Assembly (NCBI GenBank): GCA_903911145.1
Contig: CAIWCD010000003.1
Span: 642-64,641 of the forward strand
Length of the DNA: 64,000 nucleotides
Direction of reading: 5' to 3'
Origin: an uncultured delta proteobacterium
Lineage (GTDB): Bacteria; Myxococcota; Myxococcia; Myxococcales; 40CM-4-68-19
Both the position numbers and the translations under genes were made by a program. Below are positions 1 through 44,080 of the stretch, piece after piece. A model generated the notes under the pieces. That model was not told the DNA's origin and did no database searches. It worked only from the letters and a program-made list of their open reading frames with translations. Numbering within the stretch: the stretch's first letter is position 1; the number at the start of each line of letters is the position of its first letter.

Positions 1-1135
1 GTCGAATGGTGCGTCCGGAATCAACGCTCCGCAGAGCGGATCCATCCAGTATTCCGGTGCGGCATACCTGTTCCGTTATTCCGGAACAGCATGGTCGCAA
101 GAGGCCTATTTCAAGGCCTCGAATCCAGATATCAACGCCTATTTCGGCGATTCACTCGCCTTGTCTGCCGATGGCAACACGCTGGCGGTCGGCTCGGTCT
201 ACGAGTCTGGGATTTCGACCGGTATCAACGGAAATGAGACGACAGCCACCTCGAGCCCCATCTATTACAACTCGGGAGCGGTGTATCTGTTTCGATATGC
301 AAACAACAGCTGGTCGCAGCAGGCCTATATCAAGGCATCAAATGCGACGGACAACCAGTTCTTCGGGTGGTCTGTCGCGCTCTCCTCCGATGGCGACACG
401 CTCGCTGTCGGGGCGGAGAGAGAGGCGAGCTCCGCAACGGGAGTGAACGGAGACCAGTCTGACACGTCCCAGCAGAAGGCCGGTGCGGTCTATGTCTTCC
501 GTTTCGCTTCCTCTGCCTGGACTCAAGAGGCCTATATCAAGGCATCGAATACCCTGGGTTCGCAATTCTTCGGATACGCGGTCTCTCTCGCTTCCGATGG
601 CAATACCCTTGCGGTTGGTGGCTATGGCGAGTCGAGCAATGCCATTGGAATCAATGGCGGCGAGTTCGATACTTCCGTCTCCCTGGCGGGCGCGGCGTAC
701 CTGTTCCGTTGCGCGAACGGCCACTGGTCGCAAGAGGCCTATATCAAGCCGGCCAATACGAACACAGAACAGTACTTCGGCATTTCGGCCAAGCTCTCCG
801 CGGATGGGAACATCCTCGCGGTTGGCGCTTATCGGGAGTCGGGGAACGCGACAGGGATCAACGGCGGAGACCCCGCCAATACCAGCGCGACATATGCCGG
901 TGCCGCATATGTCTTCCGATACGATGGTTCGTGGGTGCAGGATGATTATGTCAAGGCGACGAATACAAAAGCAGGTCAGTATTTCGGCTATTCGCTGGGG
1001 CTGACCTCCGACGGCAGTACCCTTGCGGCAGGAGCATTCCAGGAAGCGAGCAACGCGACAGGTATCGGGGGGGATCAGACGAACACAGCCGAGCCCGGCG
1101 CAGGAGCTGTCTATCTCTTTCCGACGGGAGAGTGA
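1..1135 (+). CDS. FG-GAP repeat (integrin-alpha-like beta-propeller) protein, 5'-truncated at window edge
   Basis: Frame 2 is open from nt 2 with no stop. It carries about 6 tandem ~65-aa repeats with the pattern FGxSxALSxDGNTLAVGA...TGINGxxxDxS..AGAVYxFR..W.Q.AYIKAxN, typical of FG-GAP. Third codon positions are GC-rich. Alternative-frame ORFs 6..446, 338..1162 and 483..1004 are Arg-rich and were rejected. Confidence 0.75.
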   Translation, partial: SNGASGINAPQSGSIQYSGAAYLFRYSGTAWSQEAYFKASNPDINAYFGDSLALSADGNTLAVGSVYESGISTGINGNETTATSSPIYYNSGAVYLFRYANNSWSQQAYIKASNATDNQFFGWSVALSSDGDTLAVGAEREASSATGVNGDQSDTSQQKAGAVYVFRFASSAWTQEAYIKASNTLGSQFFGYAVSLASDGNTLAVGGYGESSNAIGINGGEFDTSVSLAGAAYLFRCANGHWSQEAYIKPANTNTEQYFGISAKLSADGNILAVGAYRESGNATGINGGDPANTSATYAGAAYVFRYDGSWVQDDYVKATNTKAGQYFGYSLGLTSDGSTLAAGAFQEASNATGIGGDQTNTAEPGAGAVYLFPTGE

Positions 1136-1208: not shown

Positions 1209-1715
1209 TCAGGATGACTTCACCCGTCTTGTCAGCAGTTCGCGGAGCTGATCCGGTGCTGGCACCGCGCTCTTGGGAAGGAGCACGAGGGTGAAGCCGG
1301 AGCAGATGACGAATAAGTCCTTCAGCTCAAACCAGCGCTTGAAGTTCGACCACTCCAGTTGTGCTTGTCCGCGTGGTCCAGACGCGGTCAAGCCGGTTTC
1401 TGAGAGGTGATAGCTGATTCCCCTCTCGCAAAGCTCACGGATCACAGGGCCGTTGATCCCGGCGAAAGCAATTCCGAACGGGAGCAAGAGAACCGGGATG
1501 GCGCACGCCAGCCAGAGCTGAAACGGCAGATCCGAGAGCCTGAGCGCCGGAGCGTGAAGAGGAAGGGAAGCGCGATGCCGGCAGCGATTGCCAGTTGTGC
1601 CCACGTCGAGGCGAAATACAGCGTCAACCGTGCACGAATGATTTGGCTCTTGGTCGGTCGCGCTTCGATGTCCATCGATTCCTCGTTGGTTCCGGATAGC
1701 ACAGTGGTCCTGCAT
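1209..1715 (-). CDS. hypothetical small membrane protein (start ambiguous: 1715 or 1760)
   Basis: GC3-rich frame on the minus strand. A hydrophobic segment (LWLACAIPVLLLPFGIAFAGI) is followed by a charged C-terminus. The N-terminus runs into repeat unit A, so the start is unclear. No recognisable family. Confidence 0.4.
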   Translation of the reverse strand: MQDHCAIRNQRGIDGHRSATDQEPNHSCTVDAVFRLDVGTTGNRCRHRASLPLHAPALRLSDLPFQLWLACAIPVLLLPFGIAFAGINGPVIRELCERGISYHLSETGLTASGPRGQAQLEWSNFKRWFELKDLFVICSGFTLVLLPKSAVPAPDQLRELLTRRVKSS

Positions 1716-1716
1716 C

Positions 1717-1975
1717 GGGAACGTAATCGGTGGGCTGTTCGGTGCTTCCGCGAGCGTCACTCCCCTCGGGAAAAGGCGCGCCTGACAGGAGTCGAACCTG
1801 TGGCCCGCGGCTTCGAAGGCCGCTGCTCTATTGGCTGGGCTCGGGAATATCTCAGAACAGGAAGGCCGCGTTGGACGCGGGCTCTCGAATCTCAGAATAT
1901 TTGGCGCCAGGCTCGCCGCCTAAGTCCCAAATATTTCGGGAACGTAAAACGTAAGAGGAACGTAATCGAGGGGGT
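1717..1975. repeat. repeat unit A (long form): gggaacgtaa motif + tRNA-Arg 3' fragment (1775-1831) + ~140-bp extension ending in (g)ggaacgtaa..ggaacgtaatcga
   Basis: Positions 1775-1831 are identical to tRNA positions ~21-76 (ggcgcgcctgacaggagtcgaacctgtggcccgcggcttcgaaggccgctgctctat). The sequence then diverges from the tRNA (ttggctgggctcgggaatatctcagaac...). Units B and D share the same extension. Confidence 0.8.
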
Positions 1976-2058
1976 TGGAACGGGTCGCGCCCCCCCCCAG
2001 AGAGGCTGGCCCGCTGCCTCCCTTGACGACAACGTAGCCTACGGGATACATTGTTCTT

Positions 2059-2349
2059 GTGTTGGAAATTCGCAAAACTCAGGTCTTTGCCAGTTGGCTC
2101 GATGGGCTCCGAGACCTTCACGGACGCGCGCGAGTCCAGGCTCGGATCGAACGCCTCGCAGCAGGGAACGCCGGGGACGTGAAGCCGGTAGGCGAAGGCG
2201 TTTCCGAGATGCGGATCAAGACCGGGCCTGGCTATCGCGTCTACTTCATCAAGCGCGGGCGCGAGGTGATCGTTCTGTTAGCCGGCGGCGACAAGAGCAC
2301 GCAGCCCGCCGATATCGAGACCGCCAAGCAGCTCGCACGGAACCTATAG
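2059..2349 (+). CDS. type II toxin, RelE/ParE-superfamily 'addiction module killer protein' (HigB-like); GTG start
   Basis: The 96-aa product MLEIRKTQVFASWLDGLRD...DVKPVGEGVSEMRIKTGPGYRVYFIKRGREVIVLLAGGDKSTQPADIETAK matches the conserved killer-protein family that pairs with the downstream antidote. Confidence 0.85.
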   Translation: MLEIRKTQVFASWLDGLRDLHGRARVQARIERLAAGNAGDVKPVGEGVSEMRIKTGPGYRVYFIKRGREVIVLLAGGDKSTQPADIETAKQLARNL

Positions 2350-2357
2350 GAGCACTT

Positions 2358-2657
2358 ATGAGGAAGACGAAGACCACCACGACTAAGTACGACGTCGCCG
2401 AGCACCTTCGCACACCGGAAGAGATGGCGGCTTATCTGGAGGCGTGTCTCGAGGAAGCGGACGGCGACGCGGCCTTCATCGCGAAGGCGCTGGGGGACAT
2501 CGCGCGTGCGAAAGGCATGAGCCAAGTGGCGCGCGATTCAGGCCTGTCGCGGGAGAGCCTATACAAGGCGCTGTCGGGCGAACGCAGTCCCGACTTCGCC
2601 ACCATCCTTAAAGTCGTGGGCGCCCTGGGCTTGAAGCTTCACGCTGCGCACGGTTGA
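2358..2657 (+). CDS. type II antitoxin, 'addiction module antidote protein' (HigA-like HTH)
   Basis: The 99-aa product has DVAEHLRTPEEMAAYLEACLEE and a C-terminal HTH (MSQVARDSGLSRESLYKALSGERSPDFATILKVVGALGLKL). It lies 8 nt downstream of the toxin. A long Arg-rich upstream extension (ORF 1407..) was rejected. Confidence 0.85.
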   Translation: MRKTKTTTTKYDVAEHLRTPEEMAAYLEACLEEADGDAAFIAKALGDIARAKGMSQVARDSGLSRESLYKALSGERSPDFATILKVVGALGLKLHAAHG

Positions 2658-2661
2658 TCTG

Positions 2662-3225
2662 ATGGCTCATCACAAGCGGCGGCGGCCGAAGCACCAGCGA
2701 GCAGGTTGTCTACTCTGTAAGCCGTGGAAGGACGAGCGCGCGAAGAGCACGGGCTCGAGCGGTCACGTCTCGTTCAGCGTGTCCAATGCATCGACGTGCA
2801 TTACGGACATATCGAACGCGAGCTGCGAACAGACTGTCTCCACCATGCCGAGCAGCTGCGGGGGTGTACTTGTCGGCAAGTTGGCGAACGGCAGCGCCTG
2901 CCAGTTTGGTGTCGAGTGCGAGAGCACGCTCTGCCTGAACGAAACCAATGCGGGGACCAGCCTCGCGACGCCCGGAACCTGCGCAGCACAGGCATCCGCG
3001 GGGCAGGCCTGCACCCCACCTTTGTCAATGGATACCTGGGTCCAATACCGAACGCTGGGAGGCTCAATCTGCGCGGCGGGATCGTATCCGAGCACAGACA
3101 TCACGGGGACCGGCTCGGGCGCGCCGTGCACTTGTGTCGCGTTGACCTCGACCGGCACGGCATGCCCGGCCAGCACTCCCCTCGACGCGCAGACCTGCAG
3201 CTCGTTCTTCAATCCGCGGCAATAG
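2662..3225 (+). CDS. Cys/Thr/Ser-rich small protein with basic N-terminus (MAHHKRRRPKHQRAGCLLCKPWK), unknown function
   Basis: The frame has strong GC3 bias, low Arg content and 17 Cys. Competing frames (2724..3236 +, 2763..3494 -) are Arg-rich and antisense-like. There is no SD sequence, and the start is 4 nt after the antitoxin stop. There is no obvious signal peptide. Confidence 0.4.
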   Translation: MAHHKRRRPKHQRAGCLLCKPWKDERAKSTGSSGHVSFSVSNASTCITDISNASCEQTVSTMPSSCGGVLVGKLANGSACQFGVECESTLCLNETNAGTSLATPGTCAAQASAGQACTPPLSMDTWVQYRTLGGSICAAGSYPSTDITGTGSGAPCTCVALTSTGTACPASTPLDAQTCSSFFNPRQ

Positions 3226-3337
3226 TTCTGGAGTAGGGATCTCCAGGCGCGTCTTCCAGCCCGAGGAGGACGGAGCCATTCGTGCGCACGCTGCCTCGCT
3301 TGACAAAAGTGCCAGGGGGGGGGTAGCCGCCCGCGCC

Positions 3338-4642
3338 ATGCACAAACCCTCCCGACTTGTCTTCGCTGGGCTGCTCTCGTGCCTCGCGGTCGGCTCCGCC
3401 GCGAACAGCGCTCCCGTCGTGTCGTCGGGCACCGATGATTTCGCCGCTCTTGATGAACCCGAACCGAACGGCGTGAACACGCATTGCCAGACACTGCATG
3501 ACGTTCCCGTTGGCCGCCTCCGCCTCTTTTACGTGCGCGGGTTCGATGGCTTCTTCAAGATCTGGCTCCCTGAAGCAGCAGATTGGACGATCCAGTGCGA
3601 CCAAGGAGAGCTCTTCCACGCGCTCTCGAAGTCGCTTCGCCTCGAGGCGAACCTGCGCATGTATAAGCCGAAGCCAGGCGAGGACACATCACCAGCGAAA
3701 TATCTGGCGATGGTCGGCGCGCGGTTCAAGAACGGGATCGAGGCAAGTGGCGCGCGCGTGACCCATAGCGATGTCGCCGCGCTGACCCAGGGAGAGGATA
3801 ACGGCCCACTCGGCCTCGACATGACGATCGACGCGCCAGCGGGCCATTCGGCGCCGCTCTTCCCGCAAGATTCGTTCTACGCGACGCACGCCGGACCGGA
3901 TGGAGTGCAGTTCGACCTGCATCTCCGCGCCTATTTCCGCACTCCCGCGGAGCAGGCGCAGTTGCGCTTCAAGGCTCACATTGCGCTCACCTCGTTCATC
4001 GTCTCGGGAATCGATCCTTCGGCCGTCGCGAAAATGAATTCTGCCGCCGCGGAGATCGCAACTCCAAGTCGACCCCCGGCAGGATTCGCCGGCGTCTCGG
4101 CGACGAATTTCTCCGAGAAGACACTCTCTGCGATGAAGGCCGTGCTCGATTGCACGCGAGACGCAATGATGGCGCGCTATTGCGCAGCGCTCGATCGTTT
4201 CAGCGCCGCCAAGCCGCTCTCTCCCACGACGAGCGGCGCCTGGGCCGGCAGCACACTCGAGCTCGAAGCGGGGCGGAAGACCAAGATTTCCGACGTCGGC
4301 GAAGGCATTCACGCTCTCTACCTGAAGCAAAGCAAAGGCTCGTTCAAGTCCATGAGAGCCTCGAACGCCTCCGAGTCGGTGGACATGCACAAGGCTCTCA
4401 ACGAGCTGCACGCGGGGTACGCGCCAAGCCCGTCGGGCGGGCTGATGAAGCGCATCGTGGAGCTCACGCCGTCGGAGATGAAAGCGCTTGAGCAGAAGAC
4501 GGAAACCCTATCGTTCATCATCGAGGAGGATTCCGACAGTGTGACGCGCGCGTTCGTCCGCGAGAACGAGAAGGAGATCCTCGTCGTGGAGATCTGGGGG
4601 GACGGCTACGAGATGGAGGTAGGCATCTTCCCGAAGCCGTAA
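3338..4642 (+). CDS. secreted hypothetical protein (N-terminal signal peptide)
   Basis: The 434-aa product starts MHKPSRLVFAGLLSCLAVGSAANSAP, a signal-peptide-like N-terminus. The composition is protein-like. No recognisable domain. Confidence 0.6.
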   Translation: MHKPSRLVFAGLLSCLAVGSAANSAPVVSSGTDDFAALDEPEPNGVNTHCQTLHDVPVGRLRLFYVRGFDGFFKIWLPEAADWTIQCDQGELFHALSKSLRLEANLRMYKPKPGEDTSPAKYLAMVGARFKNGIEASGARVTHSDVAALTQGEDNGPLGLDMTIDAPAGHSAPLFPQDSFYATHAGPDGVQFDLHLRAYFRTPAEQAQLRFKAHIALTSFIVSGIDPSAVAKMNSAAAEIATPSRPPAGFAGVSATNFSEKTLSAMKAVLDCTRDAMMARYCAALDRFSAAKPLSPTTSGAWAGSTLELEAGRKTKISDVGEGIHALYLKQSKGSFKSMRASNASESVDMHKALNELHAGYAPSPSGGLMKRIVELTPSEMKALEQKTETLSFIIEEDSDSVTRAFVRENEKEILVVEIWGDGYEMEVGIFPKP

Positions 4643-4700
4643 CGCGGCAGTGCGCAAGAGCGTGCGAACGCCGCCAGCGTGCACCCTCCCCGAGGTAGAC

Positions 4701-4936
4701 GGGAACGCAACGGGAACGTAATCGTCGGTCCCGGAAGTCTTGAGAAAGGCGCGCCTGACAGGAGTCGAACCTGTGGCCCACGGCTTCGAAGGCCGCTGCT
4801 CTATTGGCTGGGCTCGGGAATATCTCAGAACACGAAGGCCGCGTCCGACGCGGGCTCTCGCACCGCAGAGTATCTGGCGAGAAGTTGGCCGCCTGGGTCC
4901 CGGATATGTCGGGAACGTAAGAGGAACGTAATCGGT
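4701..4936. repeat. repeat unit B (long form) with tRNA-Arg 3' fragment at 4748-4804
   Basis: It is bounded by gggaacgcaacgggaacgtaatcg on the left and gggaacgtaagaggaacgtaatcgg on the right. The tRNA fragment carries one mismatch (cccacggc). Confidence 0.8.
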
Positions 4937-4991
4937 GGAGGTTAGAGATACTCCGGAGAATATCCAGACAGACCGGACGAAGGAGGTTCGG

Positions 4992-5297
4992 TCATTGCCG
5001 CCCGCGCCAGTACCCTGGTCGACGGCGAACGTGTGCGACAGCGAGAACACGAAACTCGTCGGCTAACTCGACGAAGTACAACGCGTAGGGGAAGCGCTCA
5101 ACGGGGCAGCGACGGATACCAGTACTCGGCCTCACTCCCGGTGCCAGCGGGAACGAGCTGGGGCGGTCGGAGATCTGCTGGGCAGCGACACGAACCGCAT
5201 GGACAAGGTCGACTCCCAGGCCAGCGTTCTCTTCGTACCAGTCCTCAGCCGCGGACAGCTCTTCTTGGGCGGCTCGCGCAAGACGAACAGGCTTCAT
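4992..5297 (-). CDS. parE: ParE/RelE-family toxin
   Basis: The 101-aa product carries RFPYALYFVELADEFRVLAVAHVRRRP, the ParE signature. Its start overlaps the upstream antitoxin stop (ATGA at 5294-5297). Confidence 0.85.
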   Translation of the reverse strand: MKPVRLARAAQEELSAAEDWYEENAGLGVDLVHAVRVAAQQISDRPSSFPLAPGVRPSTGIRRCPVERFPYALYFVELADEFRVLAVAHVRRRPGYWRGRQ

Positions 5298-5536
5298 CGG
5301 CCCCCGCCGCGACGCTTGGCCTCAAGCTCGTCGCACGCGGTGTTAAGGTCGACACCCGCCTCGGCATGAACGTCACTCGCCCGTCGCTCCAGCTCCTGAG
5401 CCCACGCTGTTTCGACAGCGCCCGTGGGCTCGTCATTCGCCGCATCGAGACTGTCAATCAACTCGTGGATGATCTGACCGCGCTCGGAAACGGGCAACTT
5501 GAGCGCTTCCTGGAGGATCGCGGCGGCAGGAGACAT
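5294..5536 (-). CDS. small antitoxin ('putative addiction module component' family) partner of ParE
   Basis: The 80-aa product is MSPAAAILQEALKLPVSERGQIIHELIDSLD...AWAQELERRASDV. The ATG maps to cat at 5534-5536. The longer ORF up to 5791 is an Arg-rich extension and was rejected. Confidence 0.8.
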   Translation of the reverse strand: MSPAAAILQEALKLPVSERGQIIHELIDSLDAANDEPTGAVETAWAQELERRASDVHAEAGVDLNTACDELEAKRRGGGR

Positions 5537-5632
5537 GATGGCAGAATAACCCAGCCGCGCCCCCTCCGTCGAGTGCGGGGCCTGGGGAACTGTTCCGAGA
5601 AACCCAGTCCCGATAGAATTCCTGAGACGGGG

Positions 5633-5998
5633 ATGCCGATGCGAGCACTGAAACTGATCCGAACGAAGAGTGACTACGAGGAGGCTCTGGGTGAAGTGGA
5701 GCAGCTGTGGGGTGCGCGTCGCGGCACGCCGAAGGGAGATCGCCTCGACGTCTTGGCAACGTTGATCGACGTCTACGAGAACGAGCACCACCCGATCGAT
5801 CCTCCCGACCCGATCGACGCCATCAAGTTTCGGATGGAGCAGCAGGGGTTGGTGCGCAAAGACCTCGAGGGGATTATCGGAACGAGGACGCGAGTCGCCG
5901 AAGTGTTGAACCGGCGGCGACCGCTATCGATTGGGATGATCCGGCGGCTGCACGCGAAGCTTGGTGTGCCGGCAGAGATCCTGATCCACGCGACGTAG
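5633..5998 (+). CDS. higA: HigA-like antitoxin / XRE-family HTH regulator (no cognate toxin adjacent)
   Basis: The 121-aa product has an N-terminal HigA-type domain plus a C-terminal HTH (QGLVRKDLEGIIGTRTRVAEVLNRRRPLSIGMIRRLHAKLGVPAEILI). The architecture is the same as E. coli HigA. The start was moved to the internal ATG at 5633. Confidence 0.8.
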   Translation: MPMRALKLIRTKSDYEEALGEVEQLWGARRGTPKGDRLDVLATLIDVYENEHHPIDPPDPIDAIKFRMEQQGLVRKDLEGIIGTRTRVAEVLNRRRPLSIGMIRRLHAKLGVPAEILIHAT

Positions 5999-6067
5999 AG
6001 GCACCGAGAGCACTGACGAAGAAGACGAAGGCCAGTTCGCTCATCGGCTGTTCTGGGCAGCGCTCAG

Positions 6068-7504
6068 CTATCCATAGTTCGTGGGCAAGGCCGACCGATA
6101 CTCCTCAACGGCCCCACGCATGGCCCAACCCGCCGACCCGATCTCAAGCGCACGCCCGAGGAGTACGTCTGCCTCTCTGTGCTCCCCTTGATTGGCAAGT
6201 TGCTCCGCAAGATCGGCGAGGCTGCCCGCGTGCTGGTCCCGGTTGAAATTCGGGAGAGAGACCGAGACTCGCATTGAATCGATCGCTTCTGCGAATCTGC
6301 CAAGGTCGACGAGTGCGCGCGAACGCCAGTAGGGAGCGCGTTGGGAGTCCGGAGCTATCGTCACAAGTTCTTCTACCGCGACGAGCGCCGCCTCGTTCTC
6401 GCCGGACCGGCGCAGTGCCACAACCCTGTTTCCCGCCGCATTCTCGTCATCACTCTCGCCTTGTGTATTTGACGTACGCCGGATGAGCTCCTGCGCCGCC
6501 TCAAGAAAGTCCTCGTTGTGCTCGATTCGCGTCGATTCGCTCTTCGCGAGGAGCATCGATTCAATCTGTTTCCACTTCTTCGGCGCGGGAACGGTGACGC
6601 GCGAGAAGGCATCATCGACCGGTTTCACGAAGGCCTTCATCGCGATTAAGAACTGAGAAGCTGGTATCGCTGCCCAATCACCGTTCCCTGATTGCAGCGC
6701 GACAAAGTCGGCGTTCGGAAGCAGGCACTCCTCGCGAGGTAAATAGCAGGTGAAATGCGTATCTGCCTGCACACGCCTCAGCGCCGCGATATCGGCAATC
6801 GTCGGCGTGAGCAGCGTGGCAAGCGGCATATGCGGCAGCGGACGAAGCAGAGGGAGGAGCGCACTCGTGAAGAGCGGTCTGATGGGCAGCGCGGCGAGCC
6901 CTGGATCCTGCGCTGCGACGAGAGCCTCAGCGAAACGATGGCCGTCACCGCTGCGGAATGGGGACGTTTCGAGAAGCGCGCGATCTGCAAACACTCGAGC
7001 CAAGAACCCTTCACCAACCGCAGTGGCATGATGAGGTCCAGAGAATAGGAAGAGACTGTTGCGCGCGACCTCCGGCTCGACTTTGTCCCAGAACATCTCG
7101 TCGTTCTGAATGTCGTGCCAACCTCGAGGCCACGCACGAACCTGCTTGGGAGTGAAATACTGGCCAGGTCTTCCCGGCGGAAAGCCCGTTGGCGCGCTTG
7201 GCGCTGTCAACTCGTCCCAGGTCCCCGGCGGATCCTCCTCGACATCGACGGGAACTCGGTGCCTCGCGGCCCAGGCTGTCGCTAAGTCAACCGCGAGCGA
7301 AACGTCATCATTCGAAGCGAAAACAGGGATACGAATCCGCGTGCCGTCCTCAGTATCGTCGAAGAAGACGCCGCGGGACGGATTCCCGCGCCAGGCGAGC
7401 CAACTCCGCAATCCGCGCAGCCGAACTGGTTTGTACGAGACGGCACTGTCTCGCAAGAACTGTGGCTGCGCCGCAATGCCCGGGATGAGAAAGCTGTAGC
7501 TCAC
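6068..7504 (-). CDS. hypothetical protein (478 aa), helical/TPR-like C-terminus
   Basis: A long GC3-biased ORF that ends 28 nt before repeat unit C. No family is recognised by eye. Confidence 0.6.
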   Translation of the reverse strand: MSYSFLIPGIAAQPQFLRDSAVSYKPVRLRGLRSWLAWRGNPSRGVFFDDTEDGTRIRIPVFASNDDVSLAVDLATAWAARHRVPVDVEEDPPGTWDELTAPSAPTGFPPGRPGQYFTPKQVRAWPRGWHDIQNDEMFWDKVEPEVARNSLFLFSGPHHATAVGEGFLARVFADRALLETSPFRSGDGHRFAEALVAAQDPGLAALPIRPLFTSALLPLLRPLPHMPLATLLTPTIADIAALRRVQADTHFTCYLPREECLLPNADFVALQSGNGDWAAIPASQFLIAMKAFVKPVDDAFSRVTVPAPKKWKQIESMLLAKSESTRIEHNEDFLEAAQELIRRTSNTQGESDDENAAGNRVVALRRSGENEAALVAVEELVTIAPDSQRAPYWRSRALVDLGRFAEAIDSMRVSVSLPNFNRDQHAGSLADLAEQLANQGEHREADVLLGRALEIGSAGWAMRGAVEEYRSALPTNYG

Positions 7505-7531
7505 TTGTTGTCTCCAGACTTGGAGTCGATC

Positions 7532-7628
7532 GGGAACGTAACGGGAACGTAATCGGAGGGCTCGCGGGCGTTTCCGACCCGGTGCAAAGGCGCGCCTGAC
7601 AGGAGTCGAACCTGTGGCCCGCGGCTTC
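7532..7628. repeat. repeat unit C (short form): gggaacgtaacgggaacgtaatcg + flank + tRNA-Arg 3' fragment 7589-7628 ending in anticodon-loop position
   Basis: Identity to the tRNA stops at ...cccgcggcttc, then gives way to unique sequence. Confidence 0.8.
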
Positions 7629-7673
7629 TTGCGGTTGTCCCATTCCTCATCGGGTCTAACCGTTGCAAGGCGG

Positions 7674-8816
7674 TTAGCCTTTGCGACCTAATATCCTCGA
7701 CCAGAAGCTCGGCGTCTTCTCCTCAGCGCCTGGCTCCATATTTTTGCGCGGAAGCATGACAGCCGACTCGGCGTTTATCTCGAATGCAGCGTCGGCGCCT
7801 TCGCCGGCAGCATCCCCCTCATTGTCACCGTCATCCGCATCCTCGGGCCAGCCGATCTTGATAAGGCAGAACGTGCCATCTTCCCCGCGCGCGCCAGCGA
7901 TCGACGTGTTGCCATCACCGCCCATCCCCGCGACGTACCCCCGCCCGAGGATGTCTCCGCCTTCCTCCATCTTGCGGCGATACCGGCGATCGGCGCAGAT
8001 CTCCTGATCGGCGACGTGGAGCGAGCCGCCCTCGACAGGAACCTCTCCGAGCGGCTCGAGTTTCGCCAGCAACTCGACAACTCGCCCAGCCGCGTCACGG
8101 GTCAGAACAAGGTGCTCGTACGCTTCATTATTGTTGCGAAAGAGCGCGAACCACTCGCCACTCGGGCACGGTGCGATCACGTTGAGAAAGAGGTTCTCCT
8201 CCAGCGCGGATTCAGACTCGCCGCTCGGGTACTCGCCAATCGCGAGCTTTCCGCTGAAGACTCGAAATGAGCCTTCAGTCTCCCAGCCGGGGGGCGCTGT
8301 TGAGAGCGGCTCAATTGGCCCGTCGTCGTCGCGATCCGGCGCTTGGTACCCAAACGCGGGCTGGCCCTTGTGCAGCTGGCCGCGCAGTGTGCCCTTCTTC
8401 TTCTTCAGCGAGAGAGCCAGCTCCGGCAGCAGTAGATCTTCGAGCTTGTTGAGTGCGAGGAGCTGCGTCTCCTCTGGCTTCGAGACGCGATAGAGCTGCT
8501 GCAGGATCGCTGCTTGCTCGTTAGGCGTGCCGGATCGCAGCGCCATCTGCAGATCAAGATACTGATCGCCCCAATCACGGACATCGGGCTCGCCACTCTT
8601 CTGCATCAGTAGCTTGTGCACGTCGTTCGCGGTGTCGCGGTCCATGGCCGGACGCAGCAGCGCATCGAGCTTCTCCACCTTGATCTCGACGACGTCAGGA
8701 CGGTCATCTACCGTGGCGAGCTTCCATCGATCGCCTTCAGTGGACGTCACGGTACACAAGCCGAATCCACGGACAACGACTGCCTCGCCGACCTTCACTG
8801 AGTTCGCGATCGCCAT
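7674..8816 (-). CDS. CarD/CdnL/TRCF-family RNA-polymerase-interacting domain protein fused to unknown ~230-aa C-terminal region with acidic tail
   Basis: The N-terminal 150 aa (VKVGEAVVVRGFGLCTV...VEIKVEKLDALLRPAM...VRDWGDQYLDLQMALRSGTPNEQAAILQQLY) align by eye to CdnL/CarD N-domains. The C-terminus is acidic (EDADDGDNEGDAAGEGADA) and lacks AT-hooks. Confidence 0.7.
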   Translation of the reverse strand: MAIANSVKVGEAVVVRGFGLCTVTSTEGDRWKLATVDDRPDVVEIKVEKLDALLRPAMDRDTANDVHKLLMQKSGEPDVRDWGDQYLDLQMALRSGTPNEQAAILQQLYRVSKPEETQLLALNKLEDLLLPELALSLKKKKGTLRGQLHKGQPAFGYQAPDRDDDGPIEPLSTAPPGWETEGSFRVFSGKLAIGEYPSGESESALEENLFLNVIAPCPSGEWFALFRNNNEAYEHLVLTRDAAGRVVELLAKLEPLGEVPVEGGSLHVADQEICADRRYRRKMEEGGDILGRGYVAGMGGDGNTSIAGARGEDGTFCLIKIGWPEDADDGDNEGDAAGEGADAAFEINAESAVMLPRKNMEPGAEEKTPSFWSRILGRKG

Positions 8817-8899
8817 GTAGAATCCTCCAAAACAAACGGGCGATAGGAACCCCGCCCGCTACGCTGCTCGAACGAGTCGAACAATCGCACGCATTCCTC

Positions 8900-9146
8900 G
8901 AGGAACGTAACGGGAACGTAATCGATGGGCGTGAGGACGTTTCCGACCCGGTACAAAGGCGCGCCTGACAGGAGTCGAACCTGTGGCCCGCGGCTTCGAA
9001 GGCGGCTGCTCTATTGGCTGGGCTCGGGAATATCTCAGAGCAGGAAGGCCGCGTCGGACGCGGGCTCTCGCACCGCAGAGTATCTGGCGAGAAGTTGGCC
9101 GCCTGGGTCCCGGATATGTCGGGAACGTAAGAGGAACGTAATCGAA
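8900..9146. repeat. repeat unit D (long form) with tRNA-Arg 3' fragment at 8958-9014
   Basis: Same structure as units A and B. ORFs 8859..9200 and 8925..9443 lie entirely within the repeat and are spurious. Confidence 0.8.
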
Positions 9147-9196
9147 GGGGTTGGACGGACTCCGGATAAACTCGGAGGCAGCCAAAGTGACTCGCT

Positions 9197-9604
9197 TCAC
9201 GCAGGCTTCAGCACGAAGTCTCTACCGGTCACGATAGAAAGGAGCTTCTGTAGCTTGTCGACAGTAGGAACGGATGCGCCTTGCTCGTACCGGGCGTACG
9301 CATTCCTCGACGACTGCCCGAGCCGTTTCGATACCTCGGCCAACGACAGACCGTGCGCCTCTCGCTGCCGACGCAACATCAGCGCAGTGAGGGTAGCAGT
9401 ATCGGAAGATCCAACCTCGATCGACTCCCCCGCGAGGCCGTAAACCATCGCTCGAAACCCCTTCTGATCGGTGAGGGACTCGATCGCGTCAACGATCATA
9501 GCAAGAGCCTCCTTGCGAGATCGGCCTTGCGTCATCAAGTCCAGCATCGGTACTTCGACGAGCCAGAACTTGCCGTCCTTCCAGACGCGTCCTTCGAACC
9601 TCAT
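9197..9604 (-). CDS. hicB: HicB-family antitoxin
   Basis: The 135-aa product MRFEGRVWKDGKFWLVEVPMLDLMTQGRSRKEALAMIVDAIESL has the HicB N-domain and a C-terminal DNA-binding region (LSLAEVSKRLGQSSRNAYARYEQG). It overlaps hicA by 4 nt. Confidence 0.8.
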   Translation of the reverse strand: MRFEGRVWKDGKFWLVEVPMLDLMTQGRSRKEALAMIVDAIESLTDQKGFRAMVYGLAGESIEVGSSDTATLTALMLRRQREAHGLSLAEVSKRLGQSSRNAYARYEQGASVPTVDKLQKLLSIVTGRDFVLKPA

Positions 9605-9774
9605 TTGGCACCTGCCTTCTTCAAGATTTTCCGAGCGAGAAGCTCGTTGATTTCCGCGTGACGAGGGATCGGCTCTTCCTCTTTCCCGTTGGTCCAGATG
9701 TCATGGTTCCCGCCGTGACGAAGGAAGTGCCATCCAGCTTGGGTGAGCTTTCGCTCGAGTTCTCGCCTCTTCAC
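9601..9774 (-). CDS. hicA: HicA-family toxin (GTG start)
   Basis: The 57-aa product VKRRELERKLTQAGWHFLRHGGNHDIWTNGKEEEPIPRHAEINELLARKILKKAGAK is HicA/YcfA-like. The GTG maps to cac at 9772-9774. The longer ORF to 9894 was rejected. Confidence 0.75.
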   Translation of the reverse strand: MKRRELERKLTQAGWHFLRHGGNHDIWTNGKEEEPIPRHAEINELLARKILKKAGAK

Positions 9775-9964
9775 GGAAGCAGTGTACACGGATCGGTGTT
9801 CACCTACAACCAGGAACCACCGAACCGCCGTCGAGAGCAGGGCTCGGGACGGCGGGGCTGTCGGGACCGAGCGAGTTGCCCACGAGGGAAACACAACGTC
9901 GTCGGGTCGGCGGCGACGGCTGGTCAGTACTCAACCCGATACCGAGAACTAACACTCTAACTGG

Positions 9965-10014
9965 ACGGGAACGGGGGCAGGTCAACAGGAGTCGAACCTG
10001 TGGCCCGCGGCTTC
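9965..10014. repeat. repeat unit E (degenerate short form) with tRNA-Arg fragment 9986-10014
   Basis: Contains gacgggaacgggggcag followed by caggagtcgaacctgtggcccgcggcttc, then diverges. Confidence 0.65.
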
Positions 10015-10031
10015 TTGCTGGCCGCTTGCTT

Positions 10032-10634
10032 CTAATCCCCCCTCACTTGAACGTCTTTGAACTGTTCGCTCGCAGCCAACGCAGCGCGAATCGCTTCGAC
10101 CAGCGACCGGAACTCGCTGGATGCCCGACGAGGCGGCCTGGTGTCTGGCGAGAGCTTCCGCACGAGGAGCGGCGCAGCGAAGATGACGAGAACCGCCATG
10201 ACAAGCATTCCAATCAGGAACGACCAGAACCAGCGCATTGCTAGCGCTGCACCGTGCATCCCGTGACCTCCGCGAACCCCGAAGATGCACGCACCGAGCA
10301 TGGCAATGCAGACCGCCCCAGCGAATATGGAATTGACGATGAGTCCATGGGCGCGACTTGGCCTTGCCTCCTCGGTGACCTCGATATTCCAGAGCAGGGA
10401 TCGGGGCAGGGTCTGACTCTGGAGTGTCGTGGCCAACCAGATGCTCTGCGTCGCGCCAGCGGCGGTGCGGGTTGCTTGCCAGCCAAACTCTTCGCCGTCA
10501 TGCACGGGTTCAACCGTCCAACTGCTCCTGCCGTCGACAAGCAGCGCATCGATGAGTGTCAACTCCTCGAGTTGCGCCCATTCCATCACCGACGGCGGAG
10601 TCAGGCTGGTCGCGCGGAATGATCTCGAAGACAT
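10032..10634 (-). CDS. hypothetical membrane protein (~200 aa, two or more TM helices)
   Basis: The start was moved to the ATG at 10632-10634, just outside repeat F. TM segments include IVNSIFAGAVCIAMLGACIFGV and WFWSFLIGMLVMAVLVIFAAPLLV. Confidence 0.55.
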   Translation of the reverse strand: MSSRSFRATSLTPPSVMEWAQLEELTLIDALLVDGRSSWTVEPVHDGEEFGWQATRTAAGATQSIWLATTLQSQTLPRSLLWNIEVTEEARPSRAHGLIVNSIFAGAVCIAMLGACIFGVRGGHGMHGAALAMRWFWSFLIGMLVMAVLVIFAAPLLVRKLSPDTRPPRRASSEFRSLVEAIRAALAASEQFKDVQVRGD

Positions 10635-10643
10635 CGTGCTCTC

Positions 10644-10740
10644 GGGAACGTAACGGGAACGTAATCGGTGGGCTCGCGGGCGTTTCCGAGCTGATGAAAA
10701 GGCGCGCCTGACAGGAGTCGAACCTGTGGCCCGCGGCTTC
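10644..10740. repeat. repeat unit F (short form) with tRNA-Arg 3' fragment 10701-10740
   Basis: Contains gggaacgtaacgggaacgtaatcggtgggctcgcgggcgtttccga and the tRNA 3' part down to the anticodon-loop position. Confidence 0.8.
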
Positions 10741-10868
10741 GGCGTGGCGACATCTCGCCTGGCCACAACTCCGAGGAGCTGGCTCGTGGTTGACTGGACT
10801 TCGAGTATTCGTTTCTCGATCAACGCCCCAACTGGTCCCGGCACGCGGAGTTGACGGCTGCGACGCAG

Positions 10869-11801
10869 CTACTCCGGGTCCGACGTCTTCCGCGCAAGTT
10901 GAGCAAGCTGCTGTTCGTTCACGCGACCACTGTCGAGGTTGAACTCCAACTCGACTGCGAACCGAACCTGAGTGACGTCGGATCTTCTGCCTCCCTGAAC
11001 GAATTCGATGAAGGCAGGTGGCCGCGACGGTGCACCGCCTGTGGATAGCTCGGCGAAGCAGGGCGAGACGTAGCCGTTCGTCGCGAGTTCGACGTAGCCA
11101 AAGCGTGCGTCGCGCGCGATGACGCCCTCGGTGATCCGTCGGAGATCGAGATACTGCACCTTCCAAGACGAGTCGTCACCCCAGTAGCAACCCCATACGA
11201 AGCCGAAATCGCCCACAGGCCACTCGTGTCGAGCGTCCCAGTATTCACTCCCGGGGATGATCGAGTCGTCGTGCAGATCCCACCAGTCCGGAACGTAGAA
11301 GCCGACTGGACAGAACCCGCTCCCGGGCGTCTCTTCTGTCTCCTCTGCGATCACTTCACCCGAGGCCAGGTCGAGGACTGCTGTCCTTGTATAGTCGCGT
11401 GAGATAAGCGCGAACTCCCGATTCCCTCGACGGAACGGCTCGAACGTCTGCAGCGTTGAGTAGTTGCGTTCGTAAGCGCAGATCTGCTCAGGCTCCTTCC
11501 CTGGCAGACGGCGAAAGACCTCGACGAGGGAAGAAACCCATTCGCCGGACGCCTTGGATCGGTTTGTATCTCGGACGAGGTAGCGGTCGCGTGGTTTCGA
11601 GCGTGACGGGATCTCGAAGTCCGTCTCGACAACGTGCTCGCGAATGACGAAGCCCTTGTCGTGCCGCGCGGCCCAGTTCTGTGCAGCAAGCTTTACGACT
11701 GCGGCCTCGGCTTTCTCGCGGGAGTAATACGCGCCGAAGTAGGCGTCCGTCTCGCGGCCGCCGTGTATCCCGTACACCCGAAAGATCACGTCGCCGCGCA
11801 T
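10869..11801 (-). CDS. hypothetical protein (310 aa), Trp/Tyr-rich, no recognisable domain
   Basis: A GC3-biased ORF. Its translation is not Arg-rich, unlike the antisense frames. Confidence 0.55.
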   Translation of the reverse strand: MRGDVIFRVYGIHGGRETDAYFGAYYSREKAEAAVVKLAAQNWAARHDKGFVIREHVVETDFEIPSRSKPRDRYLVRDTNRSKASGEWVSSLVEVFRRLPGKEPEQICAYERNYSTLQTFEPFRRGNREFALISRDYTRTAVLDLASGEVIAEETEETPGSGFCPVGFYVPDWWDLHDDSIIPGSEYWDARHEWPVGDFGFVWGCYWGDDSSWKVQYLDLRRITEGVIARDARFGYVELATNGYVSPCFAELSTGGAPSRPPAFIEFVQGGRRSDVTQVRFAVELEFNLDSGRVNEQQLAQLARKTSDPE

Positions 11802-11931
11802 TCGCGCATCATAGACAGAAGCGATAGGAAAGTGAACGCGCCTTGACGGGAGTCATGCAGTCAAATTTTCGCCGGGAACGTAACGGGAACGTAATCGGTG
11901 GGCTCGCGGGCGTTTCCGACCCGGTGAAAGG

Positions 11932-12005
11932 CGCGCCTGACAGGAGTCGAACCTGTGGCCCGCGGCTTCGAAGGCCGCTGCTCTATCCAGCTGAGCTACA
12001 GGCGC
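11932..12005 (-). tRNA. tRNA-Arg (anticodon TCG), intact
   Basis: Manual cloverleaf fold: 7-bp acceptor GCGCCTG/CAGGCGC, D-stem GCTC/GAGC, anticodon stem GCGGC/GCCGC with loop CTTCGAA (anticodon TCG, C35, A20), T-arm ACAGG-TTCGACT-CCTGT, G73. The 3' flank (11874-11931) carries the gggaacgtaacgggaacgtaatcg motif shared by all repeat units. Confidence 0.9.
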
Positions 12006-15138: not shown

Positions 15139-18100
15139 TTATCGGCCGAGCACCACCGCAGCGCTCGCTCCGCCGTAATTGGTGATCGCGATGTCCGGCT
15201 TTCCGTCGCCGTCGAGATCCCCGACGGCGACTCCGATCGCAACGCTCGAGCCCACAGGATATTGCGACGCGCCGGAAAAGGTTCCATCTCCGACGCCATA
15301 GAGAATCGAGAGGCTGCCGCTCGCAACCACGAGATCGGGCTTACCATCTCCATTCATATCCTTCACTGCAATCGCCGAGGGACCGGAGCCGACCTGGTAT
15401 GTCGCGGGTGACGCATTCACGAATGTGCCGTGGCCCGTGCCGAGCAGAATCGAAACCGTCGCATCGCCGCTGTTGCAGACCGCGAGATCGGGTTTCCCAT
15501 CGCCATTCAGATCGGCGATGGCAACGCCCATTGGAGCGGCCCCGACCGGATAGAGCGTGACACTCGGGAAGGTTCCATCGCCATTGCCAAGCAGGACCGA
15601 GATCGTCTGATTCCCCGACGCGCCACCGCCGCTGTTCACCACCACGAGGTCGAGCTTTCCATCGCCATTCAGATCGGCAGCCTCGACGGAGACCGGCCAG
15701 TTTCCTTGCGTGGCATAGCTGACCGCAGACGCGAAGGTTCCGTTTCCATTCCCCAACAGAATCGACAGACCTTCATTATTGCCATTCACGTTCACCACCG
15801 CGAGGTCACTCTTTCCGTCGCCATTGAAATCACCGATCGTGATTCCGGTTGGCGTGACCGGCACGGTGTATTTCACCGCAGGAAAATAGGTTCCATTCGA
15901 CCGGCCCAGGAGTACCGACACGGACTGATCGTTGTAATCACTCACCGCAAGATCAGGGATCCCATCGCCATTCAGATCTCCGACGGCAACGCCCGAGGGA
16001 ACGGCGCCGACCGCAGCGTTCACTGCGGCCGCGAACGTACCATCACCATTTCCATGCAGAATCGAAACGCTGCTGCTGTTGGAGTTGGCGACAACCAGGT
16101 CGAGCTTTCCATCGCCATTCAGGTCGGCCATCGCCAGCGCGTCCGGCGCGGAGCCGGTTGCGAAACTGGAGACCGTCGCGAAGGTGCCGTGGCCTTCACC
16201 GAGCACGACAGAGACGATATCCACGCCATGATTCGCGACAAGAAAATCCATCTTCCCATCACCGTTGATATCCGCGAGGGCAACTGAATAGGGCCGAGGC
16301 CCGGACGCGAGCACCGCGGCTGCGCCGAACGTTCCATTCCCCACGCCGTCGAGCACGGAGATATCTCCATTGAACTCATCGGCGACAACCAGATCGGGAA
16401 CGCCGTCGCCGTTCATATCCGCGATTGCAATCGACCAGAGCACACCCTGGACGGTGTAATCGACCGCATCGGTCACCGTACCGTCTCCACGGCCACGCAG
16501 GACAGAGACGGTATTGCCCTGCTGGTTCGCGACGGCGATATCGGGGATACCATCGCCATTCAGATCGGCAATCGCGATCGACATCGGAGTATTGCCAACG
16601 GGATGGGTCACCTGCGCGGCGTATCCCCCTGCCCCATCGCTGATCAAGATCGAGATGGAATTATCGGCCGAGTTCGCGACGATGATATCGGGGATTCCAT
16701 CCTCATTCAGATCCGCGAGCGCGACTGCGTCCGGCGATCTCCCGACGGGAAAGGGGCCGATATAGTTGAACGGCCCGGTTCCCGCGATACCCTTGAAGAT
16801 GACGACGTTGTTATCGCCGGAATTCGCCACCACGATATCGCTGATGCCGTCGCCGTCGATATCTCCCGCCGCGACCGCGACGCCGCCATTTCCGCTCGTC
16901 GACGTGATCGCGCCGGAGAAGGTGCCGTCGCCGCGACCGGAGAGGAACGAAAAGTCGCCGCTGGCACCTTCCACGGCCACCAGATCGAGCTTGCCGTCGC
17001 CGTCGAAGTCGCCCGCCACAAGCTGCATCGGCGTTCCATTGACCGCGAGGCTTGAGGCCGCGAAGAACCTTCCGTTGCCTTCACCGAGCAGCACAGCGAG
17101 CGTCGGTTGCCCCGCGTTGGCGACGACCGCGTCGGGCTTACCGTCGCCGTTGAAATCGGCCACCAGCACGGCCGAGGGAGACGAGCCGACGCGTTCAGAG
17201 AGCGGCGCGGCGAGCGAACTCTCGCAGGCGGCGGGTTCCTGGTTGAGCAATACCGAGACGGAATTATTGGATAGATTCGCGAACACGATATCGAGCTTCC
17301 CGTCGCGATTCACGTCGGCCACGGTCATCGCCGTCGAATCGCTCACGGGATAGGTGACGGGAGCAGCAAATCCGCCACCAGCAAGGCCGAGCATCACCGA
17401 AGCACCGGCGATGAGATCGGGAATACCATCGTGGTTCATATCCGCGATTGCGGCCGACTGCGGAAAGTTCCCCGACGGGTAATCGATATGGGCCTGGAAC
17501 GTTCCATCTCCGTTGCCGAGGAGAATCGAAACCGTGTTGTCCGAGGCGTTCGAAGCGGCAATGTCGGGCCTGCCGTCACCATTGATATCCCCGATGGTGA
17601 CCGCCTGAGAGAACGAACCGACCGCATAGTTCACCGCCTGCCCGAACGAACCGTCGCCGCGGCCGAGGAGGACGGAGACGTTGTGGGTCGAGCGATTGAC
17701 GACCACCGCGTCGAGCTTGCCATCGCCGTTGAGATCGCCCAGGACGACCGACTGCGACGCGCCTCCAGCGGTGTCGAAGTTGGTCGCGGCCGCGAACGTG
17801 CCGTCGCCGCGGCCGAGCATCACGGAGAGCGTGTTGTCGTAGAAGTTGCAGACGACGAGATCGGGCTTGCCATCATTGTCGAGATCTCCGATCGCCACCG
17901 ATTCCGGTCCGTTGCCGGCTGCGTAGTTGACGGCCGCGGCAAGACCGCCATCGCCCAGACCGAGAAAGACCGAGACGTTGTTGCCGGTGTTGTTGGCGGT
18001 GACGACATCGAGCTTGCCATCGCGGTTCAGATCGCCCAGCGCGAGTCCGAATGGAAACGTTCCCGCGTCATACGAGGCGGCCAGGCCGAAGGAGCCAGTG

Positions 18101-22527: not shown

Positions 22528-22665
22528 GGTGGCTCCTCGCGTGAGCTTTCGCCGCGGTTGCGCGCGGAGCTTGGGCCATCCGGGTGGAACGGCGTCAAGC
22601 GCAATGAGCAGGTCTCGCTCCCCCGTTGACGCCTCGGGCGTAGGGGAGGAGTGTTTCCGGTCGCG
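22528..22665. promoter_or_regulatory. divergent intergenic region between giant FG-GAP gene and small-paralog array; presumed divergent promoters
   Basis: A 138-bp non-coding gap separates two divergently oriented first codons. It contains TTGACG on the minus strand and a near-miss sigma-54-like TGGAAC-N..GC on the plus strand. Neither is convincing. Confidence 0.3.
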
Positions 22666-23145
22666 ATGATCGATCTGGATACCAGCGCGTGGGCCCGCAT
22701 CGGCGAAACCACCAACACCGAATACTTTGTGATCGAACCGGGCATCGTCGCGGTGGTGCCCCGCAAGGGCGCCATCGACGTGTTCGAGACGGCGCAGGAG
22801 AACGTCAACTTCGTCAATGAGCACGGCCGCCGCGAAGGTCGCCCGGTGGTGATGGTCGTCTTCTTTGATCGGCTTGCGGCGCAGGACAGCTCTGCCCGCA
22901 AGGTCTACAGCGCTGGCCCGGATCCAACCGCCGTCTGTGGAGGCGCGATGCTCGGAGGCGGCCTGCTCGGCCGCGCGGTCGCGAGTGTCTTCCTCGCCAT
23001 CGTCAAGCCCAAGGTCGTGTTCCGGATGTTCGGGGCCTACGATGAAGCGCTCGCGTGGGCGCGATCTCTTCACGCCGCCCAGAGGCCGACGTCCAACCCG
23101 CCCAGCGCGGTCCCCACTCATGATCAAGATCGGCGGCGCGCATGA
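22666..23145 (+). CDS. small paralog A1 of unrecognised ~145-aa family (possibly STAS/SpoIIAA-like fold)
   Basis: MIDLDTSAWARIGETTNTEYFVIEPGIVAVVPRKGAIDVFETAQENVNFVNEHGRREGRPVVMVVFFDRLAAQDSSARKVYSAGPDPTAVCGGAMLGGGLLGRAVASVFLAIVKPKVVFRMFGAYDEALAWARSL. The start context cgcgATGATCG is shared by all copies. The stop overlaps the next start (ATGA). Confidence 0.7.
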   Translation: MIDLDTSAWARIGETTNTEYFVIEPGIVAVVPRKGAIDVFETAQENVNFVNEHGRREGRPVVMVVFFDRLAAQDSSARKVYSAGPDPTAVCGGAMLGGGLLGRAVASVFLAIVKPKVVFRMFGAYDEALAWARSLHAAQRPTSNPPSAVPTHDQDRRRA

Positions 23146-44004: not shown

Positions 44005-44080
44005 CCGCGCCGGATCCCAATACAACACGATCAAGAGCGGCGTTGGCGTGGCTCCAACTCCATTGACGAGGCGAACCACC

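Follow-up and report, generated by a model that had tools for sequence, protein, structure and literature searches.

Successive integrations at a tRNA gene shift older elements away from it (10.1101/2020.12.28.424599), and decayed cis-mobilisable elements (CIMEs) accrete in tandem (PMC5704250, PMC3146451). Here we describe an array at such a gene in an uncultured delta proteobacterium. Within a stretch of 64,000 nucleotides of contig CAIWCD010000003.1, hereafter the window, an intact tRNA-Arg(TCG) gene is followed downstream by six partial copies of itself, all in its own orientation, with six cassettes of 0.6–2.7 kb between them. From the sequence, we read the array as the probable outcome (about 0.7 by our own estimate) of repeated site-specific integration into the anticodon loop of this gene. 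As such, it is the known footprint of repeated tRNA-gene insertion, unusual only in the small size of its pieces, their lack of an integrase and their clear bounds, and is a cleanly resolved example of the tandem accretion of integrase-less integrative elements in an uncultured high-GC lineage. Should this reading hold, the locus records foreign-DNA build-up at a tRNA gene in compact and unusually legible form, with six insertions in 10 kb, from which the crossover point, both attachment (att) arms and the candidate integrase-binding repeats can be read directly.

In the ICESt1/ICESt3-related islands of Streptococcus thermophilus, CIMEs have lost their integration and transfer genes and kept their att sites; they are arranged in tandem at the target gene's 3′ end, with chimeric internal att sites, and newcomers enter a resident's att site (PMC5704250). 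The array resembles this arrangement: every cassette sits between two repeat units, that is, between putative att sites, and integration and transfer genes are absent. Unlike the streptococcal elements, those of the array measure 0.6–2.7 kb and often hold a single gene, six of them stand in a row without a functional partner, the host is an unrelated high-GC environmental bacterium, and cis-mobilisation is here putative. The ssrA islands of Dehalococcoides are likewise tandem islands downstream of one small-RNA gene, with direct repeats of its 3′ end and extra conserved bases beside the repeat, and about half of them have no integration module and have been proposed as CIMEs; they differ from the array in their transfer-messenger RNA target, their 20-bp repeat and the CcrB-type serine recombinase of many islands, and no two-sided paired arm repeats were described for them (PMC3146451). 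Partial tRNAs and degenerate remnants between cargo genes are also found in the tycheposon islands of Prochlorococcus; tycheposons carry their own integrase and replication module (10.1101/2020.12.28.424599). The array shares the partial tRNAs, has no integrase, primase or helicase, and showed no detectable homology to tycheposons.

Tyrosine integrases that act at a tRNA anticodon loop use a lambda-type attP site, in which the core runs from the loop to the 3′ end of the tRNA and arm repeats lie at fixed distances from it. The array sites are like it in their tRNA-identical core and in the paired direct repeats, in one orientation, on both arms; unlike it, they lie between cassettes that lack an integrase, and half of the junctions have no left arm. 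Chromosomal integrons and clusters of attC sites lacking integrases (CALINs) offer a further parallel, with small, mostly single-gene or toxin–antitoxin (TA) cassettes, recombination sites between them and no integrase in the array. Unlike these, the locus has neither IntI and attI beside the array nor an attC hairpin fold; its sites are tRNA-derived, double-stranded and attP-like, and insertion would occur at a tRNA gene.

Repeat units of the array

ARAGORN found a single tRNA in the window, tRNA-Arg(TCG) at 11930–12005 on the minus strand (70.1 bits with Rfam RF00005), the proposed integration target, and a promoter scan placed a promoter-like site upstream of it at 12042–12014. The 22-mer ACAGGAGTCGAACCTGTGGCCC occurs in exactly seven copies, all on the plus strand (starting at 1785, 4758, 7599, 8968, 9985, 10711 and 11940), and a search tolerating up to four mismatches gave no further copy in the 64 kb; when the units were compared with the window by sensitive BLAST, no match fell outside 1715–12005. 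The repeat array is real, and chance is ruled out. As in a tRNA-targeting element, the DNA has the tRNA gene at one boundary and, at the other, a direct repeat of the gene's 3′ part. The six inserts, by contrast with the repeats, have no sequence in common with one another in these BLAST comparisons.

A preliminary description of this DNA had counted seven tRNA-derived units. Seven copies are indeed present, the seventh being the intact tRNA gene itself, which begins at the very end of the region described; and the repeat extends beyond the tRNA, because every unit except E also contains 48–59 bp of the flank past the tRNA 3′ end, with its paired direct repeats. At the tRNA gene this standard flank (the P′ arm, 58 bp) occupies 11872–11929 on the minus strand. 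We describe the units, lettered A (the most distal) to F, in tRNA orientation, which is the minus strand, and number the cassettes c1 to c6 from the tRNA outwards. Alignment with MAFFT divides the units into two main classes, long (A, B and D) and short (C, E and F), with E standing out as a third type.

In the long units the match to the tRNA starts at linear position 20 (ATAGAGC...) and reaches the tRNA 3′ end; in the 5′ direction they continue into a common non-tRNA arm of 141–148 bp, as had been described. Unit D (8899–9155) consists of the flank at 8899–8957, tRNA positions 20–76 at 8958–9014 and the arm at 9015–9155, with paired repeats at 9122–9144. Unit B (4700–4945) has a diverged flank at 4700–4747, which is 10 nt, or one helical turn, shorter than the standard, followed by tRNA positions 20–76 with one mismatch (4748–4804) and an arm at 4805–4945 with paired repeats at 4912–4934. 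Unit A (1716–1979) combines a diverged flank bearing a single arm repeat (1716–1774), tRNA positions 20–76 without mismatch (1775–1831) and a diverged arm (1832–1979) with repeats at 1939–1968. The arms of D and B are identical at 135 of 144 positions, and those of A and B at 117 of 138. All three end on the outside with the second motif noted earlier, GGGAACGTAA..GGAACGTAATCG. Rfam scores the long units as partial tRNAs (A, 34.8 bits; B, 34.7; D, 28.6; gathering score 29), each over model positions 9–63.

In the short units the match to the tRNA ends at G36, one base further (C35) in F. Unit F (10642–10742) comprises the standard flank at 10642–10700 and tRNA positions 35–76, and unit C (7530–7629) the standard flank at 7530–7588 and positions 36–76. 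Unit E (9985–10045) shares the common break with C and F, so that the three were rightly grouped on this point, but is otherwise a type of its own: it contains tRNA positions 36–65 only (9985–10014) and lacks the 3′ strand of the acceptor stem and the standard flank. On the 5′ side of its break follows a diverged, indel-containing likeness to the anticodon-stem and D-loop region (GATTAGAAGCAAGCGGCCAGCAAG versus GGATAGAGCAGCGGCCTTCG). C and E have five additional bases in common (GCAAG) 5′ of the break.

Break points and arm repeats

Three independent left-hand sequences in the window thus diverge from the tRNA at positions 34–36, in units C, E and F. A fourth comes from a related strain, represented by the metagenome contigs L002 and L004, in which unit F and the start of c2 are 92% identical to the window. 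On the tRNA side of unit F the window has c1; the related strain has a different element, which we call Y, and there the identity to the tRNA ends at about position 31. The four sequences therefore diverge within anticodon-loop positions 31–36. The same right-hand DNA joined to different left-hand elements in two strains indicates a homology switch in the anticodon loop, and, with the break shared by the short units, is what a site-specific crossover at or near this loop, as proposed earlier, would leave behind.

Element Y (L002, 1040–1884; L004, 480–4059) carries three GGGACAAAAG repeats, also three GTGGCAC repeats, and an excisionase-like helix-turn-helix (HTH) gene, which was recognised from its translation and not by a family-library scan. 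Its ParE/antitoxin DNA is 77% identical to the corresponding pair in c5. The two contigs differ from each other just past the excisionase-like gene, where L002 has the ParE/antitoxin pair and L004 a gene that by eye looks AbrB-type, followed by the antitoxin.

Conservation within the units is sharply composite. The tRNA-derived parts show no or one mismatch in 40–57 nt, and the flanks differ at 3 to 21 positions. In units A and B, 57 tRNA bases contain 0 and 1 mismatches, and the flanks differ from that of the tRNA itself at 21 and 17 positions, a contrast between tRNA part and 58-bp flank that is significant in Fisher tests (A, p = 1.5e-7; B, p = 4e-5). Sparing of the tRNA part beside a diverged flank argues against neutral decay in place of a non-functional copy, and the long extension is not the drift of one ancestral copy, which had been considered as a refuting outcome for the two classes. 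A tRNA-identical core would instead be constrained for as long as the elements are mobile, because it must rebuild the host tRNA.

A pair of 11-bp direct repeats, TTACGTTCC, closes both the common flank and the long arm. Sixteen copies of this motif are present, every one in the array and none in the remainder of the 64 kb; its 9-mer GGAACGTAA likewise has 16 copies, all on the plus strand between 1718 and 11886, and none in the rest of the window. The flank ends in CGATTACGTTCCCGTTACGTTCCCG; the pair recurs, unchanged in orientation, at the outer end of the long arm (CGATTACGTTCCTCTTACGTTCCCG). Measured from the break, the pairs lie at about +74 to +98 and −125 to −150, in one orientation throughout. 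They flank the core on either side in A, B and D; C, F and the tRNA gene have them 3′ of it only. We infer that these repeats are putative arm-type sites for an integrase. On the plus strand the pairs (1718–11897, for example 11875–11897) read GAAC-N7-GAAC. The alphaproteobacterial LexA box is GTTC-N7-GTTC; the LexA-like spacing of the pairs is probably a by-product of the 11-bp tandem. A promoter scan gave no support for a promoter in the common flank, with counts not above those of shuffled sequences.

How the arms are distributed speaks for the units being junctions. Cassette c6 would have both arms diverged (the flank in unit B, and the arm in unit A, which is 85% identical to those of B and D), the left arms of c3 and c5 are 94% identical, and c5 also has the standard right arm. 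This coherent assignment, the mosaic conservation and the strain comparison together argue that the units are junctions and not entities. Our best reading of them is that the long units are attP-like junctions and that the short units join on a cassette without the long arm. The preliminary description had offered two accounts of the two classes. One, that they are attL-like and attR-like versions of one system, does not agree with arm repeats on both sides of the core in the long units, which is attP-like, or with the diverged arms of c6, which fit a junction. The other, two recombination systems, is too simple, given at least four kinds of left arm (the long type, present three times; that of C and E; that of F; and that of the excisionase-bearing Y of the related strain) against essentially one kind of right arm.

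A mechanism that would produce such junctions can be proposed. The incoming circle would carry an att site in three parts: its own left arm; a core identical to the tRNA between about position 36 and the 3′ end; and a right arm of about 58 bp, at whose end stand two 11-bp direct repeats. By recombination the tRNA would be rebuilt from the copy brought by the element, and the previous 3′ half, with all that lies behind it, would shift one step away. In each unit, sequence 5′ of the crossover would then be the end of the tRNA-proximal, younger cassette, and sequence 3′ of it the start of the distal, older one. Cassettes c3, c5 and c6 would belong to one family, whose left arm comprises tRNA positions 20–35, about 115 bp and a second pair of the same 11-bp repeats; where one of them abuts its neighbour, the junction would take on the look of a complete attP with arm-type sites on both sides, which is the long unit. 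Other, very short left ends in c1, c2 and c4 would yield the short units that break in the anticodon loop. The catalyst would be an integrase encoded elsewhere, presumably of the tyrosine type with an arm-binding domain that reads TTACGTTCC. As an alternative to such mobilisation in trans, the cassettes may be the remains of larger elements.

A comparison with a related attP had been suggested, and could be made only by analogy with one viral contig and with element Y. The viral contig, IMGVR_UViG_3300021075_000215, contains another tRNA-Arg(TCG) (L021, 1513–1588) and, 13.3 kb away, a partial copy (L022, 5700–5760) that begins in the anticodon loop; paired direct repeats, TGCTACCATT, are present on both arms. 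The two sites form an attL/attR pair of the standard kind, in mirror of the architecture seen in the window.

Searches with the arms themselves returned little else. BLASTN of unit B against phages and plasmids matched within the tRNA part only, neither the long-arm block nor the full 35-nt tRNA stretch had a match in viral contigs, and a protein search with the ORF (open reading frame) that reads through the long arm, used as a proxy for a DNA search, gave no candidates. The arm repeats had one match in a public genome collection, a metagenome-assembled genome (MAG) of the Myxococcaceae (L001), where they close a small ORF and neither a tRNA nor an integrase lies nearby; we regard it as probably unrelated or due to chance. 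In metagenomes, the same search found L002 and L004, which are truly related, and L003, which is an unrelated low-GC tandem repeat. Tandem copies of GGAACGTAA also lie in intergenic DNA of the viral contigs L006 (about 2090–2131, three copies) and L007 (7164–7183), with no tRNA or integrase within the stretch examined; they may be sites of a related DNA-binding domain, or a coincidence.

Gene content of the cassettes

The cassette next to the tRNA, c1 (10743–11871), holds a 310-aa ORF on the minus strand (10869–11801) that has its own promoter-like site (11836–11808) and no assigned function, with nothing found by Pfam, NCBIfam or PADLOC. Its protein has more than 800 homologues at about 60% identity in unrelated contexts, including MoxR/VWA operons and islands of miscellaneous small genes, and no tRNA or repeats were seen in these contexts. 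Homologues at 62% identity stand in a conserved operon in the order HEAT, MoxR-like AAA, c1 homologue, DUF5682 and VWA_CoxE (L017, 8898–14685; also L018 and L019). The c1 family may thus be a component of a MoxR/VWA system, here present as a lone gene.

Cassette c2 (10016–10641) encodes, on the minus strand, a 200-aa membrane protein (10032–10634) with a weak holin-X-like match (PF07332, E = 2e-6, just under the cutoff). The ORF starts 8 nt past the arm repeats and stops 13 nt before unit E. Its first approximately 62 codons are 92% conserved in the related strain (window 10447–10634; L002, 746–930) and the remainder is unrelated, so that a break lies inside the gene at window position 10447, with the N-terminus kept and the C-terminus swapped.

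Adjoining the long arm of unit D, c3 (9156–9984) contains a HicA-like toxin (9601–9894; PF07927, E = 6e-10) and a 135-aa XRE-HTH antitoxin (9197–9604; PF01381, E = 1e-10), both on the minus strand. In c4 (7630–8898) there is a 380-aa ORF of unassigned function, also on the minus strand (7674–8816), with no family match and only weak PDB matches, to CarD and an acetyltransferase (E > 0.01); its stop lies 41 nt from the next unit.

The two outermost cassettes are multigenic. Cassette c5 (4946–7529) has, on the minus strand, a 478-aa TPR protein (6068–7504), an antitoxin (5294–5536) and a ParE toxin (4992–5297), the last two adjoining the long arm of unit B. On the plus strand, a 121-aa HTH ORF (5633–5998) matches positions 1–120 of the 402 of the PADLOC profile PD-Lambda-2_B (E = 1.4e-44); it may be a defence gene cut short or else a HigA-like antitoxin that stands alone, its partner missing. 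In c6 (1980–4699), all genes lie on the plus strand, opposite to the tRNA. A TA pair adjoins the long arm of unit A, namely a RelE/ParE-family toxin (2059–2349; TIGR02683, E = 1e-39) and an HI1420-type antidote (2358–2657; PF21716, E = 3e-30), with a promoter-like site at 2023–2052; a Cys-rich 187-aa ORF (2662–3225) and a 434-aa ORF (3338–4642) follow, the latter with a hydrophobic, signal-peptide-like N-terminus as judged by eye.

Each long-arm cassette (c3, c5 and c6) therefore ends beside that arm in a TA pair, and the three pairs belong to three different families. Such pairs would select against loss of a cassette, and we suggest that they are what protects the remnants from deletion. In c1, c2, c4 and c5, the ORF co-oriented with the tRNA starts 8–83 nt past the arm repeats. 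Signs of decay are the frameshifted YcxB-like gene next to the array and the c5 HTH ORF, which covers the first third of the PD-Lambda-2_B profile. Decay from an autonomous element may also be read from the ParE/antitoxin pair of c5, given its 77% identity to the pair of element Y with its excisionase-like gene.

No recombinase was found in the array. Pfam searches of 40 ORFs across the 64 kb, including all array ORFs, gave no integrase or excisionase, PADLOC and NCBIfam gave no recombinase among ten array ORFs, and PDB sequence searches with the three largest array proteins without assignment returned no recombinase-like relatives. No cassette, then, has an integrase gene within it.

Competing origins and surroundings of the array

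An unlikely, though not negligible, alternative is a working integron-like platform, in which born-small cassettes would be captured at the tRNA loop, acting as attI, by an integrase encoded elsewhere and working in trans on double-stranded attP-type sites. The common right arm would be the recognition site, each cassette bringing a tRNA-derived core and an arm of about 58 bp with two 11-bp repeats. This agrees with the tight packing of the cassettes (the short distances from arm repeats to ORF starts, and from the stops of c2 and c4 to the next unit), with one conserved right arm across unrelated content, with practically unmutated tRNA-derived cores, with the frequency of TA cassettes, as in chromosomal integrons, and with the presence of another cassette at the proximal position in the related strain. 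It is harder to reconcile with the lack of an integrase beside the array or in the 64 kb and with the single lineage so far known. Moreover, c6 is inverted, c5 and c6 are multigenic, some cassettes have promoter-like sites of their own, genes are truncated or frameshifted, and the proximal element of the related strain, which has an excisionase-like gene and arm repeats of its own, resembles an ordinary integrative element. Three features lead us to favour remnants or CIME-like elements over born-small cassettes moved in trans: genes are truncated, some cassettes are multigenic or inverted, and element Y seems ordinary. Were the cassettes mobilised in trans, the locus would be a small-cassette capture system distinct from integrons and would matter more.

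We also consider it improbable that the short units are scars of integrase-mediated deletion. By this account all elements were once larger and of the long-arm type, and recombination between the core and a chance core-like site removed the long arm and the integrase genes, joining unique DNA to the core at the crossover. Breaks at one position would follow, as would the GCAAG common to C and E directly 5′ of the break and the lack of an integrase anywhere in the array; and the left ends of c2 and c4, with only 13–41 nt of non-coding DNA, are too short for an arm. In the related strain, however, an element that has arm repeats and an excisionase-like gene ends naturally in a short-type junction, which means that unrelated left arms exist without any deletion. 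The ORFs beside the short units, moreover, seem complete, with their stops before the break, and deletion at a chance site would not always leave them so.

It is very improbable that the long unit is a structured element, either a folded strand of the attC kind, for which a folding check had been proposed, or a tRNA-like non-coding RNA with a 140-nt extension. The partial tRNA scores in Rfam would suit it, as would two small palindromes kept in A, B and D (CCGCGTC..GACGCGG and CCCG.ATAT..GGG). Folded as single-stranded DNA, however, the long arm has an energy like that of shuffled sequences on either strand (z = −0.8 to −1.8) and no attC-like fold, and Rfam finds no family in the units other than tRNA. 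The tRNA-like part lacks the 5′ strand of the acceptor stem and the D stem, and with three copies, two of them 94% identical, covariation is not assessable. Least probable of all is local duplication by unequal crossing-over or slippage followed by drift, with long and short units as differently decayed copies, since the co-orientation and clustering of the copies would fit it but the six inserts have no common sequence, divergence is sharply non-uniform (tRNA parts intact, flanks up to about 35% different) and the breaks coincide at the anticodon loop.

Several observations weigh against serial integration at the anticodon loop, which remains our preferred explanation. Neither an integrase nor an excisionase nor a circular junction was found, so that site-specific recombination is read from its footprint. 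The long arm with its repeat pair was found in one lineage only, in the window and the two short metagenome contigs, and an autonomous parent of the long-arm family was not found. If the families were independent, nearly identical right arms would not be expected where the left ends are unrelated; one trans-acting integrase common to all could explain them, as could a captured host flank or homologous recombination that homogenised the repeats of about 100 bp. Unit E fits poorly, because as an arm of c3 its insertion would leave the tRNA with a broken acceptor stem, and a later deletion must be invoked. Finally, the distal end of the array, that is, the original chromosomal flank, was not identified.

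On one side the array has genes for a 4HB_MCP protein and an amino-acid permease as neighbours, and on the other it has YcxB-like and FG-GAP genes. Directly beyond unit A, the YcxB-like membrane-protein gene (1209–1702, minus strand; PF14317, E = 1.5e-7) is split over two overlapping frames, as a frameshift or pseudogene, and is possibly an older, decayed seventh cassette. Homologues of the 4HB_MCP protein (P0004 and P0005, 56–57% identity) adjoin kdp genes without a tRNA, and synteny is lost. Across the analysis, the nearest named homologues come from MAGs of Verrucomicrobiota and Planctomycetota. Window proteins looked up by exact match gave only unitigs from ERR4194711, of the same strain and arrangement and broken at the repeats. 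One Logan unitig over c5 (L024) stops in unique sequence at 4983, 38 nt before the long arm of unit B, which may reflect low coverage or a variant branch in the sample.

The neighbouring genes include those for Ser/Thr kinases and sigma-54 activators, and giant repeat proteins, among them FG-GAP and RCC1 proteins, flank the array. At the left edge of the window (1–1135) is an FG-GAP protein with a DNA period of 207 bp, and a 2662-aa FG-GAP/Big_1/invasin-D3 protein is encoded at 15139–23127 on the minus strand. Further along, on the plus strand, lie genes for a 2187-aa RCC1-repeat protein (37441–44004) and a 2522-aa TIG/Big_1 protein (43988–51556).

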